Under the pieces are notes generated by a model. It was not told the origin of the DNA. It saw nothing but the letters and a program-made list of their open reading frames with translations, and did no database searches. The position numbers were made by a program, and so were the translations under genes. This document shows positions 369-58,509 of a stretch of DNA of 64,000 nt, in pieces. The DNA lies in the IMG/VR virus record IMGVR_UViG_3300047089_000152, positions 32,001 to 96,000 of that record, one strand, 5' to 3'. The first letter of the stretch is position 1. Every line of letters begins with the position of its first letter. This DNA is from a virus.

Positions 369-1396
369 ATATCCCCTCGACCGCCGAACTTCTACTCCGC
401 GCCGACTGGGCGCGTCCCCGGTCTCGGCAGACAGCGCTGGGCATGTCCGACCTCGGTGGGTGTCGTCGCCGTGCCGGATATCAGCTGGCCGGTTACCAGC
501 CGGAGAAACCAAGCGGATCAATTCAAGCTGTCATTGGCACGGCAGTGCATGATGCCGTGGATGCCGCGCTGAAAAAGATGCGCGAAGACGGGATCATTCC
601 CGCCGACTCGGTCATCAACGAGGCCGTCTCGTTTGGTGGCGTCGTAGGGCACCCGGACCTTTATGTGGACGGGGTACTCAGGGATGTTAAAACTCTCGGG
701 TATGGGGCGCAGCTGGCGAACGCGAAGCTGTACGGTCCGAAGCGGCAGCATCTGTGGCAAGTCATGACGTACGCCGCAGCCTGTATCCTCGCGGACCGGC
801 CGGTGCGCACTGTCCAGATTGATTACCTTGTCAGGGATTCCGGTGAAAGCTGGATATGGGAAGGGCCGTTCGATTTCGGGCAGGTCCGCGAGGCGATGCA
901 GTGGCTGGAATCGGTGCGGGAAACGCCGCTGGAATTCCTCGCCAGGGATTACGCTCCAGATTCGGCGACATGCAAAGGCTGCCCGTTCTTCAACGCCTGC
1001 TGGGACGGCCACGTGGTCGACCGTGACGAACGATCCGTCCTGCTAGTCACCGATGACGACGCGGTGCAGTGGGCGCTGCGACTGGAAGTAGCCCGGGAAC
1101 GGATCAAGACGGCGAAAGAAGAAGAAGCCCTGTCGAAAGGCGCGCTCGACGGGCTACGCCCTAACGACAAGGGAAAGGCGGAAATAAAATTGACTGGCTA
1201 CCCGAAGACTCTGCGCTGGACAGTCACTACGCGGAAGAATCTGGACACCGAAGTAATAAAGCAAGATTATGCGAGGGGCGGCATTATGCCGCCCCTCGCA
1301 TCGAGCGAAAGCGTCCGGTTGGAGTTGCTCGCGCCGCGGGATGAGGATTTATCCTGCCTATCCAATCCCGGCCGCTCCATGCCAAGCCATGCCTAG
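365..1396 (+). CDS. Cas4-like / RecB-family PD-(D/E)XK exonuclease
   Basis: GTxxH, GHPD..DVKT, QxxxY motifs; Fe-S cysteines (GGCRR ... CKGCPFFNAC); GTG365 start. Confidence 0.85.
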   Translation: MNIPSTAELLLRADWARPRSRQTALGMSDLGGCRRRAGYQLAGYQPEKPSGSIQAVIGTAVHDAVDAALKKMREDGIIPADSVINEAVSFGGVVGHPDLYVDGVLRDVKTLGYGAQLANAKLYGPKRQHLWQVMTYAAACILADRPVRTVQIDYLVRDSGESWIWEGPFDFGQVREAMQWLESVRETPLEFLARDYAPDSATCKGCPFFNACWDGHVVDRDERSVLLVTDDDAVQWALRLEVARERIKTAKEEEALSKGALDGLRPNDKGKAEIKLTGYPKTLRWTVTTRKNLDTEVIKQDYARGGIMPPLASSESVRLELLAPRDEDLSCLSNPGRSMPSHA

Positions 1397-1413
1397 CCGC
1401 GCCTATCCCTTGC
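1351..1413 (-). ncRNA. satellite pentamer guide array S1 (11 pentamers + GGCA)
   Basis: minus strand GCAAG GGATA GGCGC GGCTA GGCAT GGCTT GGCAT GGAGC GGCCG GGATT GGATA GGCA; TATGAT -10 at 1426-1431(-). Confidence 0.7.
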
Positions 1414-11520: not shown

Positions 11521-12186
11521 ATGCCACCACGCAAGACCACCACAGGCGGACCAGTCCAGCTCACCAGGCTGGCAGAAGAAGTCGCCCAAATCCACATCGC
11601 CGGGGCTACGCCACTTATTATTCATAAATGGTCGGAAAAGGCGCTCAACCAGATGCGGATCGCCCAGTCCGGGGCAATTAAGCCGCCCCGCGAACCCAAG
11701 AACGCCGAAGAAAACGCCCACGCGGCAACATACTGGGTCGACGTCGCCGAGACGATCCCCGGCATCCCCAGCGTCTCATTCAAGGCCGCCATGGTCGGAG
11801 CCTGCCGGTTCTTCGACGGCCTCCCCATGACGACAGCAAAATTGCTGTTCTTCGTCGACGGGGTCGTCAGCGAAGCCAAGGGCGACGCGCCAGCACGCGA
11901 CCTGCTCGTCCCGATTATCTCCGGCCCTGGGGAAATGCGGGAAGACACCCCGCGCAACGACAACGGAAACCCGGACCTCCGGTACAGGAATCAGTTCTTC
12001 CCGTGGAAAGCCGTACTCAACGTGCGGTTCATGCCCGCGAAGATCGCCCCCGAATCCGTCATCGCGCTAGCTGACGCCGCCGGTCGTGGCGGTGTCGGAG
12101 AATGGCGTCCATCCGCACCGAAAAGCGCGACTGGCACATACGGCCAGTTTCGTGTCATCACCCGGAAGGAATGGGAGTCGGCCTAA
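11521..12186 (+). CDS. stand-alone Cas7/RAMP-like RNA-binding protein (Vipr-like effector)
   Basis: I.G.TPLIIH start, PGIPSVSFKAAM..AC, C-terminal Gly-rich loop GRGGVGEWRP...GTYGQFRV; flanked by guide arrays. Confidence 0.8.
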   Translation: MPPRKTTTGGPVQLTRLAEEVAQIHIAGATPLIIHKWSEKALNQMRIAQSGAIKPPREPKNAEENAHAATYWVDVAETIPGIPSVSFKAAMVGACRFFDGLPMTTAKLLFFVDGVVSEAKGDAPARDLLVPIISGPGEMREDTPRNDNGNPDLRYRNQFFPWKAVLNVRFMPAKIAPESVIALADAAGRGGVGEWRPSAPKSATGTYGQFRVITRKEWESA

Positions 12187-12187
12187 A

Positions 12188-12745
12188 ATGGCGACCATCA
12201 CCGTCGAACAGCAGTGGGCGTTCAAATCGGGTGCGCGTGTCCCGGGTGGCGTCCACGCCGAGGATGTGGTGCGTGAGAAGGAACAGATGGAAGACCACCT
12301 GGGCCGCCTCGCCACCACGGAGGAAGCCGCGGAAATGGTCCTCCGCTGGCCTACCAAGTACAAGGCGCACCGGGCGTTCGCACCGGCAACCGAGAAAGAA
12401 GCACTCCACGAAGCAGTGGTACGCGGTGTTCGGAGCGCCTGGAGTTCCGTGATTCAGGTCGACGTCGAAATCACCGAGGTCACCAACCGGATTTCCGGTG
12501 ATATCGAGATCGCAACCAGGCGTGTCGACGCACCCGAAGTGAGATGGTTTCACGCCGTGCCAGCACGCGTCGGCGACACGCAACGAGTTTATGACTCGTT
12601 GCCGAATATCGCAGCCGATGCTGACAAGGAAGCGGCGCTGTCCGAAGATCTCGCCACGCAAGCACGCAACTTCTCCGCAAAAGTAGCCAGCGTCACTGGC
12701 GAGCTGGCGCGGTTGCACAAGTTGCGCAGCACCGCCGGAAATTAG
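12188..12745 (+). CDS. accessory protein of the RAMP/array locus, function unknown
   Basis: starts 2 nt after the RAMP stop, ends immediately before the array leader hairpin. Confidence 0.7.
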   Translation: MATITVEQQWAFKSGARVPGGVHAEDVVREKEQMEDHLGRLATTEEAAEMVLRWPTKYKAHRAFAPATEKEALHEAVVRGVRSAWSSVIQVDVEITEVTNRISGDIEIATRRVDAPEVRWFHAVPARVGDTQRVYDSLPNIAADADKEAALSEDLATQARNFSAKVASVTGELARLHKLRSTAGN

Positions 12746-12790: not shown

Positions 12791-12794
12791 AAGG

Positions 12795-14073
12795 GGAGTG
12801 GAGGGGCAGGGACTGTCGTGGCAAGGAACGGCAGGGCACGGAGTGGATTGGCAGGATAGGCTCGGCGCGGCCAGGCGGGGAGCGTTTCGGAGTGGCATGG
12901 ATTGGCTGGGACTGGCAGTATCGGATCGCAGTGGTCAGGGTAGGCAAGGCCCGGCCAGGCGGGGCTCGGTATGGCCTGCACTGGCGGGGAACGCAATGGA
13001 GTGGCAGGACCGGTGTGGAATGGCTGGGACGGGAACGGCGCGGTAGGGAATGGAGTGGCAGGAACGGTGGGGCCGGGCGCGGCGCGGCTAGGCTCGGCGC
13101 GGACGGGCATGGATTGGCTGGGCAGGACAGGATCGGAGAGCAGGGGGCTGGCGCGGCATGGCACGGAGAGGCAGGAGAGGAACGGTCGGGACAGGAGCGG
13201 CAAGGAGCGCACCGGCAGGCAGCGGCAGGGAATGGCATGGAACGGACTGGATTGGCAGGACAGGACCGGCATGGCCAGGAGGGGCATGTCCTGGAATGGA
13301 ATGGCAGGAATGGCTGGGTACGGCGGGGCCGGGCGAGCATTGGACAGGACCGGCAGTCGCGGAAGGGCTCGGCAGGGACCGGATTGCAGCGGCGAGGATG
13401 GGCTAGGCAGGAGCGGAACGGCAGGGCATGGCCTGGATCGGAGCGGCTGGGCAGGATAGGCATGGATCGGCCTGGGTAGGCAAGGAGGGGCTGGGACGGG
13501 ACCGGATTGGCAGGGCAGCAGTGGAGAGGCAAGCCGTGCAATGGCGGGGCGGGGCGTGGCATGGACTGGACCGGCAGGACTGGACTGGACTGGATTGGAG
13601 AGCAGGGCAGTGGCAGGGATCGTAGGGGTTCGGACGGGCAGGTTAGGCTTGGACGGGCTAGGCGTGGCATGGGCCGGCAAGGAACGGCTCGGAGCGGCAG
13701 GGATTGGCACGGCTCGGAGTGGCAGGACCGGACGGGTACGACGTGGCGTGGCTGGCATTGGCAAGGACTGGCAGGAGTGGATTGGCAGGGCCGGGCTTGG
13801 CATGGCGTGGCTGGGAATGGCGTGGCAGGACAGGTGGGGCTTGGCGGGCCGGGGATCGGCACGGATGGGCATGGCATGGCCCGGTAGGGCATGGCAGCAT
13901 TGGACTGGACCGGACCGGCAAGGCTTGGCTTGGCTGGGATCGGATGGGAACGGCAGGAGCGGAGCGGACTGTCGTGGCATGGCATGGCCTGGCGTGGCGC
14001 GGATCGGACGGGCAGGATAGGTCGGGCGTGGAATGGAACGGACGGGCTGGGCATGGAACGGCAGGATAGGAGT
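12795..14073 (+). ncRNA. main guide array: 237 GG(C/A)-NN pentamers in 21 GGCA-delimited segments
   Basis: 237x5 + 21x4 = 1269 nt accounts exactly for 12795-14063, then GGATA GGAGT; segments of 8-17 pentamers. Confidence 0.85.
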
Positions 14074-14279: not shown

Positions 14280-15149
14280 ATGAACGAGACCATAGAACGA
14301 GAAGACCGCAGGGCCGTCACCGCGCTCACCTCCGGGGAAAACGCCACGAAGGTCACCGTCAAAACAAGCGACGGCAACTACGAAGAACGACAGCTAACCG
14401 TCCACGGGCTCGCACGGCTGATTCCCGTGATCGCACTGGGCGACATGGACCGGCTGATAGACGACGTGCGCGAACACGGCGTCCTCGAACCCCTGATCAT
14501 GTTCCAGGGACAAGTCCTTGACGGACGCAACCGGCTCGCCGTAGCTTCGGTCGTCGGCGTACCCGTGCAGCTCACCGAATTCGACGGAGACGAAGCCGCA
14601 GCCAGAAACTTCGTCTGGTCCGCGAACGCTGCGAGGCGGCACCTGTCCGTCCCCCAGATCGCGCTGGCCGCTGAACGGTTCGGTTTCGTCGACGCCGCCA
14701 AAGCCGAAGCAGGCCCCGACGACCCCAACCTGGATATCCGCTCGACGGTCGCACCATGGGCGCGAATCGCCGCGCGAAAGGTCGGTGCGATCACCCCGGC
14801 TACACTGGAACGGTTCCAGCAAGCCAGGATCCCCGAGGCACCCGACACGATGCGCCGGGTCGATTCCGGTGAGATCCGCCGGGTCGACGTCGCGGTCAAG
14901 GAAGCGGTCGCGGAGCGGACCGTGCTCACCGGCCGTCTCATCCAGGTTCCACCCCCGGTTGCGCGTACCGCGTGGGACCGGCTGGGCTGCGCGCGGGGTG
15001 ACGTTCTCGCCGCGGAACGCGCCATCCTGGCAGGGGACTGGGGTGGGATGGAAAGGGACCAGTTCGCTGTCCGCGCCCGTGAAATCCAGGGAGCCCTGAT
15101 CAGGATTCAGAATTTGTATCGTTATGGATCGGGCGGCAGGACCGGTTAG
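14280..15149 (+). CDS. ParB N-terminal domain protein
   Basis: L..DVREHGVLEPL...GQVLDGRNRL...SANAARRHLS. Confidence 0.8.
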   Translation: MNETIEREDRRAVTALTSGENATKVTVKTSDGNYEERQLTVHGLARLIPVIALGDMDRLIDDVREHGVLEPLIMFQGQVLDGRNRLAVASVVGVPVQLTEFDGDEAAARNFVWSANAARRHLSVPQIALAAERFGFVDAAKAEAGPDDPNLDIRSTVAPWARIAARKVGAITPATLERFQQARIPEAPDTMRRVDSGEIRRVDVAVKEAVAERTVLTGRLIQVPPPVARTAWDRLGCARGDVLAAERAILAGDWGGMERDQFAVRAREIQGALIRIQNLYRYGSGGRTG

Positions 15150-15207
15150 GACGGGCTAGGAATGGCTGGGCTGGGCATGGACTGGAATGGCAGGAATGGA
15201 ATGGCTA
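15135..15207 (+). ncRNA. satellite guide array S3
   Basis: GGCA + 10 pentamers (15139-15188) + GGCA + 3 pentamers; overlaps the ParB stop and the next ATG. Confidence 0.8.
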
Positions 15208-29652: not shown

Positions 29653-30708
29653 TCAGTGTTCCAGGAGTTCCAGCAGGCGTTTCGCGTTGCTGGTGAACGT
29701 GCGGTCAGCGATAGCCTCACGCGCTTTGTATGCCGCCTGTTCCCGTTCACTATCGTGGGCGAGCCACCAGCGGATCTGATCCCCTGCCTCTTCCGGGCTG
29801 GAGAACGTAGGGAGCATGTCCAGCACCGAATCCCCCTCCGCGCGGGGATCGCGGAGGTAGAAAAGCCCGCACGCCGCTTGTTCCACCTCACGGGGCCCCA
29901 TCGCCCACGGGACGGCGGTGCTGTCAGCGTCCGCGTCGTCGTATTCGCGGCGGTAAAAGTTGATGCCGCACTTCGCGTTGCGGTACACCTCGGCCACTTC
30001 GCTGTTGTCGACACAGTCGTCAATGTCATGGCCCATGAACCTGCGCAGCGGAGACTTCGACGCCCCCGGCCAGCAGCCCCCCAGCAGCACGTCCAGGCCG
30101 TCCAGGTTCATCCGCTCGAAAAAGTCGATGCGGGACTGGAACCCCGTCCCGATGAACGCCAGGTCCGCCGCGAGGTCCACGTTGACAGGGCCCGTGCGAG
30201 GGTAATGCACGGAAGGCCGGTACGCGTGCGGCGCATACTCCGCGACGGCACCTAGCTCCCGGTACTGCTCAATGTTCACCGGGTCGTTCAGCAAGACGAT
30301 GTCGCTGCATTCCGCGCGTTCCAGCTGCATCTTTTCCTGGTACGGCGACTCGGTGGCGAGCAGGACAACTTTCATCCGCCGCTGCTGAAGCAGGGCCATC
30401 AGCCCCGGGGTGACGAAGAAACCGGAAACGAAAATAACCGCGTCTGGCCAGAACGTGAAAGCCGCATGAGAGATGCCCTGCATCGCCATGCGCAGCGCGT
30501 CCTCGTCGTTCATCGCCCGGCGTACCAGCGGGTGCCCCGACTCGTCCACGTCCCCCGTGGAAATCAAAGCATGACCGTAAAATTGTATACGATCATCAGA
30601 ATTAAAACTGGCAACTTCACACCCAAGCTCCCGCAGCGCCTCACACCAACCGTCATGCACATCAGCCACAGAAAAATTTGGGCCTGGATGTACCACTAGT
30701 ATGCGCAC
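29653..30708 (-). CDS. glycosyltransferase (CgeB-like, GT-B)
   Basis: FIGTGF.SR...VYRNAKCGIN...R.VE.AACG...RT; GTG30708. Confidence 0.75.
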   Translation of the reverse strand: MRILVVHPGPNFSVADVHDGWCEALRELGCEVASFNSDDRIQFYGHALISTGDVDESGHPLVRRAMNDEDALRMAMQGISHAAFTFWPDAVIFVSGFFVTPGLMALLQQRRMKVVLLATESPYQEKMQLERAECSDIVLLNDPVNIEQYRELGAVAEYAPHAYRPSVHYPRTGPVNVDLAADLAFIGTGFQSRIDFFERMNLDGLDVLLGGCWPGASKSPLRRFMGHDIDDCVDNSEVAEVYRNAKCGINFYRREYDDADADSTAVPWAMGPREVEQAACGLFYLRDPRAEGDSVLDMLPTFSSPEEAGDQIRWWLAHDSEREQAAYKAREAIADRTFTSNAKRLLELLEH

Positions 30709-30748
30709 GGAAGCATCATCCTGTCCTAAGTGTGGTAGGATAGTAATT

Positions 30749-30864
30749 GCATTGGAGGGGCATGGCATGGCACGGCCCGGAGTGCTGGGGTGGGGAACGG
30801 AATGGATGGGCAGGATAGATCCAGGTTGGTGCGCATCTTTTACAGGTGCGCACCAACCTGGATC
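30749..30864 (+). ncRNA. satellite guide array S4 plus 18-bp hairpin
   Basis: 12 pentamers 30749-30808, GGCA, GGATA; TGG-TAGGAT -10 at 30733-30741; inverted repeat 30818-30835/30847-30864. Confidence 0.8.
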
Positions 30865-31250
30865 AGAAATGAGCATCCCATGTATTGCTGGCCGGCGTAT
30901 TCGGTGAGTCCGTAGGTCATCACCTGCAATACGACCGTGAACTCCACCGCCCCGCCCAGGGTCGGGTCAGCCTGCACCGCCGCGTTGATGCTTTTAGTAC
31001 CGGACGTGGACACGTAGTCGTCGATTACGTCCTGGCCGGAAGCGTCGTTCGCGGCGGATACCAGCACGACGGCGAGGAGATTGACCTGGGTTTCGCCGTC
31101 CATCGTGATGCCGTAATTGACCGCTGGCCGGTTCGGGATTATGACCGCGCATGGCGGTATGACCTGCCCGGGTGCGATCGCGTGTACGTTCAGCCCGGTG
31201 GTGGATAGCCGGGTTGCGAGCGCGACCCTGATCGCTTTGACGTTAGCCAT
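30840..31250 (-). CDS. tail terminator / completion protein
   Basis: SI.AA..ADPTLGG motif; position. Confidence 0.7.
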   Translation of the reverse strand: MANVKAIRVALATRLSTTGLNVHAIAPGQVIPPCAVIIPNRPAVNYGITMDGETQVNLLAVVLVSAANDASGQDVIDDYVSTSGTKSINAAVQADPTLGGAVEFTVVLQVMTYGLTEYAGQQYMGCSFLIQVGAHL

Positions 31251-31331
31251 CTACGGGCGGTCCTTGCATGTATGGCCCTTCTTGGTCCAGTAGACCTTCC
31301 CGCATATGCCGCACGCTTTCGTCATCCCCAT

Positions 31332-32267
31332 CTATACGCCGACTTTCCCGCGGCCTCTGATGTAGCAGCGGAGCTGCTCCGCGATCCACGGGTTAGGATT
31401 CAACCGGACAATGCCGAGGTCAGCCATACCCATGACACCCCAGGGGGCGTCTTTCAGCTTGAACCAGTCCGAGGCGATCAGCAGCGCCGCCTGGGTAACC
31501 ACGGGCGGGACCTGCGGCCAGCCGAACACGCCGGTGATCTGGACCCGGTCGAGGTGGACGAACGGCCAGATGAACGGGAACCAGTTCGACTGCCCGATCA
31601 CCTGAACCTGCGTGTACGGTTTCGGTTCACCGGAGGCGAGCTGGTTGAACTGGCCGTCGCCGACGCGGAGCATGTAGTTGGTGTTCTGCGTCCATGTCGT
31701 CTCGTACACCCCGTCCCCGTCACTGTCGATTTTCAGGGACGTGACGGACACCAGGTCATCGACGGGGAGCAGCCAGATGTCCTGCGGCTGGTATGTGCGC
31801 GTGTCGGTGAACCGGAAGAAATGCCTCCCGCAGTACGTGTCAATCCACCGTGACGTCGCCAGGCAAACCGAAGCGATCACCGAATCGGTGGCAGGGTCGG
31901 TTTGCCCGAGTCGGTCTTTCAGCTCCTCGGGTCCCACGTACCAGCGTGGCTGGTCCAGCGCCAGTACCCGCCACGTTCCGGGCTGCACATCTGATGCGGT
32001 ACCAGTGCCGATGAAGGCGTAAGACCAGAGGCCGTCGATGTTTGCGACCGCGGGGGAGCACGGCACGATCAGCTGGTACACGCCCGTGCTGGTCTTGGTG
32101 ATGTCAGCCGGGGCAGTGCCAGCGAAGGTGTGGATTGTCTGGGTTGCGGCCGGGTCGGTGATTACGCACGACACGGCGGTCGGGTCGGTGGGGGTGCCGG
32201 ACACGGTGAATGTCGCGACGATCGTGGCAAGCTCGTTCACATTGTCGTAAAACACCGTCGCAGTCAA
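31332..32267 (-). CDS. head-tail connector (gp6/gp15-like) with extra N-terminal domain
   Basis: YV..EELK.RL...SRWID.YCGR.F...GWP.VP..V.QA. Confidence 0.8.
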   Translation of the reverse strand: MTATVFYDNVNELATIVATFTVSGTPTDPTAVSCVITDPAATQTIHTFAGTAPADITKTSTGVYQLIVPCSPAVANIDGLWSYAFIGTGTASDVQPGTWRVLALDQPRWYVGPEELKDRLGQTDPATDSVIASVCLATSRWIDTYCGRHFFRFTDTRTYQPQDIWLLPVDDLVSVTSLKIDSDGDGVYETTWTQNTNYMLRVGDGQFNQLASGEPKPYTQVQVIGQSNWFPFIWPFVHLDRVQITGVFGWPQVPPVVTQAALLIASDWFKLKDAPWGVMGMADLGIVRLNPNPWIAEQLRCYIRGRGKVGV

Positions 32268-47501: not shown

Positions 47502-47610
47502 GGCAGGATGGGATTGGCATGGCGCGGCAAGGTAGGGCTCGGATCGGCAAGGAATGGATAGGAACGGCAGGAGTGGCAGGGTGCGGTCCTCTCGTATCGG
47601 GAGGACCGCA
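47502..47610 (+). ncRNA. satellite guide array S5 plus hairpin
   Basis: GGCA, 12 pentamers 47506-47565, GGCA, 2 pentamers; TGG-TACGCT -10 at 47478-47486; hairpin 47582-47610. Confidence 0.85.
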
Positions 47611-54556: not shown

Positions 54557-54575
54557 ATAATCTCCCTTAGTGCCA

Positions 54576-54685
54576 GGTATGGAGGGGTGCGGCTTGGCGT
54601 GGCTTGGCGGGGCGCGGCGGGGATTGCATTGGATTGGATTGGCAGGAACGTCACTGACCTGCACCTACGCGGTGCAGGTCAGTGA
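54576..54685 (+). ncRNA. satellite guide array S6 plus 15-bp hairpin
   Basis: 13 pentamers 54576-54640, GGCA, GGAAC; TATAAT at 54556-54561; inverted repeat 54651-54665/54671-54685. Confidence 0.85.
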
Positions 54686-58417: not shown

Positions 58418-58453
58418 GAGTCTCCTACGTGGTACACTGTAGGTACAGAAAGG

Positions 58454-58509
58454 GGATAGGAGCGGCAGGGCTTGGCCTGGAGAGGATCGGCTGGGATTGG
58501 ATTGGCAGG
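58454..58509 (+). ncRNA. satellite guide array S7
   Basis: 10 pentamers 58454-58503, GGCA GG; TGG-TACACT-GTAGGTAC promoter 58430-58446. Confidence 0.8.

Follow-up and report, generated by a model that had tools for sequence, protein, structure and literature searches.

The S4 cassette and its surroundings

The stretch of DNA analysed here (the window, 64,000 nt) is part of a 104,150-bp virus record of high GC content that comes from a soil phage. Two genes on the minus strand frame the locus. The tail terminator gene (30840..31250; 136 aa) was assigned to phrog_17840 with an E-value of 1.4e-27 and has 41 homologues; the glycosyltransferase-like gene (29653..30708; PF13524, E = 8e-13) lies directly downstream of the slot that holds the cassette. 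This cassette, S4, is situated antisense within the ∼130-nt spacer of the tail operon that separates the two genes. The sole cellular relative of the tail terminator was found in a Micromonosporaceae MAG, and a megablast comparison of 8 kb with GenBank phages produced no match. Between the head-tail adaptor gene and the tail terminator gene there is a small Cys-rich ORF coding for 33 aa (31243-31344, minus strand); in two of the relatives considered below, L002 and L003, a comparable one flanks the tail terminator on its opposite side.

The S4 guide tract (30752..30811, plus strand) has a five-letter rhythm and is 60 bases long; it reads as 12 NNGGN pentamers, all in one register. The earlier note had set its start at 30749; the tract actually begins at 30752, and positions 30747-30751 (TTGCA) make up a preceding non-GG unit. 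The list of NN pairs given in that note was reproduced exactly: TT GG AT AT AC CC GT GG GG AC AT TG. GG is present in 11 of the 12 units, with unit 7 (GTGCT) being broken. The third scaffold base is A, C or T (GGH), not Y, and the last three scaffolds, GGA, GGA and GGC, are followed by AGGATAG. The resulting 3′ punctuation, GGC|AGGATAG (30809..30818, plus strand), is common to the array guides described below and to the other solo guides; GGC is followed by AGG at each of the 21 guide ends identified in the window. Across these 21 guides the NN entropy is ∼3-3.6 bits and the NN positions vary up to the last unit. The grammar of S4 is the same as that of the 20 other guides of the window, in the main array and in the other solo tracts.

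Next to the punctuation is a perfect hairpin of 21 bp with a 5-nt loop (30818..30864; z = −4.6), the right arm of which is formed by the last seven codons and the stop codon of the tail terminator gene. As orthologs conserve QxGAHL at the C-terminus, the left arm must be the added inverted copy. Homologous hairpins are present in the relatives L001 and L003. The hairpin is likely to serve as a two-way terminator and as the vrRNA 3′ tail of S4. Ten nucleotides 5′ of the first guide unit we observed an extended −10-like element, TGGTAGGAT (30733..30741, plus strand). A TGGTA..AT element also precedes the syntenic cassettes of L001 (TGGTATTAT) and L003 (TGGTATGAT), and this conservation across three cassettes suggests a promoter role for TGGTAGGAT. 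A generic sigma-70 promoter and terminator scan detected no full promoter and no other signal, and no Rfam family was matched.

A VIPR system in the same phage

VIPR was first described in 2026; the natural targets reported to date comprise satellites, regulators of prophages and further VIPR loci. The Vipr RAMP polymerises on vrRNAs made of GGY/NN units, the NN pairs of which read double-stranded DNA with every third base skipped; natural targets were called at NN identity of at least 80%, and no self hits at or above 80% were reported (2026 preprints). The published outcome is transcriptional silencing. In the type II VIPR of Escherichia phage SUSP1 a vrRNA comprises 9-16 units of five bases, in each of which two G are fixed and two bases are free, vrRNA arrays may be staggered (fig. 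S18), and a change of GGY to GGA was one perturbation tested (bioRxiv 10.64898/2026.04.26.720920).

In the window the ORF at 11521..12186 (plus strand, 221 aa) codes for a RAMP/Cas7-like protein, whose family profile has only one PDB match, to SUSP1 Vipr (36pp_D, E = 3.8e-12). The family profile was needed to see this similarity, as comparison of the single sequence with SUSP1 Vipr gave E = 0.56. The AF2 model of the protein (pLDDT 94) has its best fold matches among Csm3, Cmr4 and type VII Cas7. The gene, which we designate vipr, occurs only once in the 104,150-bp genome. The ORF 3′ of it (∼12188-12745, plus strand; ∼185 aa from MATITVEQQW), a candidate vap, had no Pfam or PHROG match. Many tracts with the five-base rhythm occur in the window; one of them (12793..14062, plus strand; 1.27 kb) is the main staggered vrRNA array with about 20 guides and a register-shifting GGC|AGGA between guides. 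Several guides of this array, too, contain single non-GG units.

Because S4 shares the pentamer grammar and the GGC|AGGA end with the array, and because a Vipr homologue is encoded in the same genome, S4 is, by sequence criteria, the gene of a solo vrRNA that belongs to the VIPR system of this phage. What the earlier note had described as a RAMP protein with its satellite is recognised here as the published pair of Vipr and vrRNA. With 12 tandem 5-nt units S4 falls in the range of 9-16, its deviations being the GGH scaffold and the one broken unit; it also carries a structured invariable 3′ tail, GGC|AGGA with the 21-bp hairpin, the structure of which is unlike the SUSP1 pseudoknot. As a whole, the system of this phage resembles SUSP1 VIPR type II in having a Vipr RAMP, the same unit plan, skips that fall on wobble positions and staggered array guides. 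It differs in that the scaffolds are GGH rather than GGY, the tail is GGC|AGGA with a plain hairpin rather than a pseudoknot, and the Vipr protein is only distantly related to SUSP1 Vipr.

Solo vrRNAs were reported earlier in SUSP1-family phages and in F5 satellites, with an identity cut-off of 0.8; for those that target vrRNAs, the self scores were below the scores against rival phages (bioRxiv 10.64898/2026.10.15.759431). Like these, S4 is a stand-alone pentamer-coded guide located off the vipr locus, with targets predicted by one-base skips and a self score below that on rival phages. The published solo vrRNAs, however, occur in VIPR-null phages and satellites, where they stand in for the vipr-vap1 locus or are directed against vipr genes, other vrRNAs, satellites and host REP decoys, whereas S4 is carried by a VIPR-positive phage inside its tail operon, adjoins the phage's own copy of the target gene and appears to have a core structural gene of sibling phages as its target.

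Matches of solo guides in this phage and its relatives

The best S4 match in the genome, on either strand of the 104,150 bp, is at 31132..31166 (plus strand), 321 bp from the guide; it covers codons 29-40 (QVIPPCAVIIPN) of the tail terminator gene, and the runner-up has a score of 17. As the earlier note had claimed, the NNx reading of this site yields the listed pairs, with 19/24 bases and 8 of 12 whole pairs in agreement; the mismatches are in 4 of the 12 units (6, 7, 10 and 11). The skipped base coincides with the wobble position of the minus-strand codons QVIPPCAVIIPN. When the pairs or the bases of the guide were shuffled, a score of at least 19 turned up somewhere in the genome in 0.37-0.57% of 3000 trials, and never (0 of 3000) at less than 1 kb from the guide; therefore, the match exceeds chance. 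Simple duplication was rejected as the origin of the match, since a 3-nt period cannot become a 5-nt period by copying. The target motif is conserved in tail terminators, with P32, P33 and P39 nearly invariant. We saw no wobble recoding at the site (3 of 12 codons A/T-ending, P = 0.61). Its identity to the guide, 79.2%, is only just below the 80% that the literature uses by convention, and becomes 19/22 (86%) if the broken unit 7 is left unread; the same omission gives 21/22 for L001.

To place this score we compared 14 IMG/VR loci and 35 metagenome loci containing relatives of the tail terminator, with 41 homologous proteins. For the homologues P0003-P0014 the scores were derived from peptides, using residues with unambiguous codon prefixes, and the cut-off for a natural target was the literature convention of 80% NN identity. 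The S4 score at the orthologous site reached 22/24 (92%) in L001, the closest relative (82% identical protein) and a potential competitor, and 20/24 in both the L002 group and L019, while for P0008 (QIVPPAAVIIPN) and P0014 the peptides implied 22/24 and 21/24, respectively. Most other relatives scored 15-19/24. The self score of 19 is the median of the 40 homologues scored from peptides; the resident site is thus neither conspicuously 'escaped' nor unusually divergent. In 10 of the 39 scored relatives the S4 score is at least 83%, with the alleles of L001 and P0008 at 92%.

The decoded peptide departs from the self peptide by I at position 2, V at 3, T at 6 and G at 7. Each of these residues is found in some natural ortholog, never all of them in one sequence; the Gly at position 7 is common to the S4 guide and L001, with most homologues having Ala or Val. 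The exact decoded peptide was in none of the 40 scorable homologue peptides. Searches of IMG/VR, JGI metagenomes and GTDB genomes for the exact decoded target (24 specified bases) returned no match, and a search with its 18-base sub-pattern was likewise empty. Therefore, a perfect S4 target is either unsampled or non-existent. Nor did we find matches to a rival guide that would code for this phage's own tail terminator allele, or to the S4 guide itself in other phages.

These data bear on the proposal of the earlier note that S4 encodes an ortholog variant of the adjacent gene, the differences being ortholog divergence rather than random guide decay. Random derivatives of the own site with five substitutions reached 22/24 with any sampled relative in only 0.036% of 200,000 cases; S4 is thus not a randomly decayed copy of the self sequence, which upholds the second half of the proposal. 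The first half was borne out in that two relatives fit the guide better than self does (22/24 versus 19/24) and in that the alignment of orthologs shows every differing residue to be natural; it was not borne out as to the full variant, which is absent from the orthologs, and as to the self score, which is no lower than their median. The ortholog-variant proposal is, then, partly supported: S4 represents a natural-looking allele of the tail terminator motif, closest to those of two relatives.

The slot occupied by S4 is not empty in some relatives. L001 and L003 have antisense cassettes there, with NN content that makes their guides different from S4; these cassettes share the TGGTA..AT element, have GCA ahead of their first unit and contain a tail-terminator 3′ end in their hairpin. 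In L004 and L007 there is almost no spacer at this position, and the cassette is therefore a presence/absence polymorphism. A Vipr search in the records of five relatives, which are fragments 9-49% complete, found none; among these five only L001 has the cassette. The L001 cassette (L001:1062-1200, minus strand) begins with six NN pairs identical to those in the L003 guide, which are followed by a 6-nt unit that shifts the register and by a shortened second half; its guide looks like one in decay. Its broken unit GTGTC is homologous to GTGCT of S4.

The guide of L003 (L003:2760-2844, minus strand), in the same slot as S4, has 17 units and spells MKVVLLATESPYQEK of the adjoining glycosyltransferase-like gene. 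The corresponding site (MKVVLLATESPYQEK) in the glycosyltransferase-like gene of our phage (30329..30378, plus strand) scores 32/34 (94%), so that, at the threshold used in the literature, an L003-type phage is predicted to target our phage. The L003 guide scores 33/34 in L004, 29-31/34 in the closer relatives L001, L002, L005-L013, L019 and L022, and 22-25/34 in the distant relatives L014 and L025-L049. On the site of L003 itself (L003:3224-3273) the score is only 27/34 (79%). Three of the mismatched pairs at this site result from synonymous switches, Leu CTN to TTG (twice) and Ser TCN to AGT; 8 of 15 codons are A/T-ending versus a background of 17% (P = 0.0015), and none of the codons that end in C in the relatives' versions is retained. 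Such recoding is the footprint that one would expect if selection acted on the resident copy to avoid its own guide. In guide sense there is no G at the skip positions of the L003 site versus 5-6 G in relatives, a loss which hints that the 'skipped' base may not be neutral for recognition.

Near-targets next to guides are seen elsewhere in this genome. Along with S4 (P = 0.005 for its genome-wide best match), the solo guide at 15137-15191 has its best genome-wide match 38 bp away (19/22, P ≤ 0.005), the one at 47504-47568 has it 655 bp away (21/26, P ≤ 0.005) and the one at 54574-54643 has it 73 bp away (20/28, P = 0.08); the guides at 58452-58506 (plus strand) and 1356-1410 (minus strand) are without self near-matches. 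Hence, among the six solo guides there are three or four with an own near-target next to them. For 14 array guides no significant self match was found in the genome. Two of the other solo guides match neighbouring own genes at 0.81-0.86, above the 0.8 convention, and so self matching below the threshold is not uniform among the solo guides of this phage. At the self site of the 47504 guide 9 of 12 skip bases are A or T despite the GC-rich genome.

A guide linked to a mismatched resident allele

We consider it reasonably probable, at roughly 60%, that S4 serves to silence the matching tail-terminator alleles of sibling phages while the mismatched resident allele is spared, so that guide and immunity are linked. 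S4 would be transcribed from its own extended −10 promoter, antisense to the operon, as far as the 21-bp hairpin, and Vipr protomers would coat the GGN scaffolds, exposing the 12 NN pairs. In a mixed infection the Vipr-S4 complex would bind the matching allele of a related phage and block transcription of the rival tail operon; the resident allele would be spared through its four mismatched units. With the guide placed beside a resistant allele, recombination between related phages could not part the weapon from the immunity. The basis of this scheme is a set of sequence relationships, from which we infer transcription, loading, binding and outcome.

Several observations could be accounted for otherwise. 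The best genome-wide match of S4 is, after all, the adjoining own gene, and one could think that S4 binds its own tail terminator gene despite five mismatches, tuning or timing transcription of the phage's own tail operon. This agrees with the two solo guides that match neighbouring own genes above the published 0.8 and with the 86% self match that S4 attains when the broken unit is ignored; moreover, we found no published data on VIPR mismatch tolerance. Yet the alleles of two relatives fit the guide better than self, in the published systems there are no self matches of 80% or more and self scores are below non-self ones, and in L003 synonymous Leu and Ser switches together with wobble recoding have reduced the match of the own site, the opposite of what self-regulation predicts. 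We regard such a role as improbable. Little different in our estimate, and unlikely too, is that S4 is a decaying or orphaned guide with no present function, whose target allele became extinct or was never sampled, the near-match being a leftover. The broken unit, the failure to find a perfect target in IMG/VR, JGI metagenomes and GTDB genomes, and the visibly degenerate homologous cassette of L001, where a 6-nt unit shifts the register, are what a relic would show. Still, S4 keeps one register over 12 units, the full 3′ grammar GGA GGA GGC|AGGA and a perfect hairpin, single non-GG units also occur in several main-array guides, and with two natural alleles at 92% and 10 of 39 scored relatives at 83% or more it has matches above the natural-target threshold.

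A fortuitous likeness of a G-rich repeat to a stretch coding for many Pro, Ile and Val residues is very hard to believe. The GG GG and AT AT pairs are of low complexity, and several tracts and registers were available for choice when the earlier note was made; against this stand the composition-preserving shuffles (0/3000 within 1 kb and ∼0.5% genome-wide), the three other solo guides with like adjacency and the orthologous site in relatives with up to 22/24.

Returning to silencing of siblings by a guide tied to a spared allele, a known arrangement offers itself for comparison. Free-standing homing endonucleases of T-even phages, which are responsible for intronless homing and marker exclusion, lie beside resistant target genes. 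They and S4 alike are small selfish cassettes between conserved genes, with an apparent action on the neighbouring gene of relatives, a linked own allele resistant via sequence differences and a presence that is polymorphic among relatives. Unlike the endonucleases, S4 would recognise its target by RNA guidance, and the published outcome of VIPR is transcriptional silencing. We rejected the idea that the S4 cassette is itself a homing endonuclease, as it is ∼130 nt of repeats and a hairpin without a nuclease; what is shared is the linkage logic only. The phage ICP1 directs a phage-encoded CRISPR-Cas system at the rival element PLE. Both this type of system and VIPR are phage-borne, RNA-guided and directed against competing mobile elements; VIPR differs in having no spacer-acquisition genes and in its non-contiguous code, and in this phage the guides are dispersed across the genome instead of being confined to a single array.

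More tentatively, and with more doubt than belief, one may extend the reading of S4 to solo VIPR guides in general. They would be linked modules of a weapon and an immune allele, held in small reprogrammable cassettes beside the gene attacked in siblings, an RNA-guided counterpart of free-standing homing endonucleases that would bias the survival of alleles in mixed infections. VIPR itself, solo vrRNAs and the pattern of self scores below non-self scores for vrRNA-targeting solos are already published. In the VIPR papers searched there is no mention of solo guides that lie in the structural operon of a VIPR-positive phage beside the phage's own near-targets, of guide exchange at a conserved slot, of a target that is a core structural gene of siblings, or of GGH scaffolds; the three preprints searched are likewise silent on guide-target adjacency or linkage. 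If the silencing of siblings is true, VIPR would also drive allele-level competition of close phages over core structural genes, and the positions of solo guides would find a simple evolutionary explanation in the linkage between guide and immunity. The loci described here are natural sets of matched, mismatched and recoded sites for the study of tolerance to mismatches and skip bases, which is undefined in published work.

Some observations concern the movement of the cassettes. The glycosyltransferase-like gene has its 5′ part beside the cassette, and there the segment 30560-30700 stands out by an AT content markedly above that of the neighbouring DNA; the identity of this segment to L001 is 86-90% as compared with 69-84% in the flanks. 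The identity and AT content of this segment are weak evidence that cassette and flank travel together; a recent horizontal transfer of the cassette, considered on the strength of the local identity, was rejected as too weak to claim. In L003 the hairpin (L003:2722-2761) includes a tail-terminator 3′ end coding for EYGAHL-stop, while the tail terminator gene of L003 itself ends with ECGAHL-stop, and a small Cys-rich ORF separates the hairpin from the end of this gene. Such an arrangement suggests that the L003 cassette may have moved together with a fragment of another tail-terminator allele.
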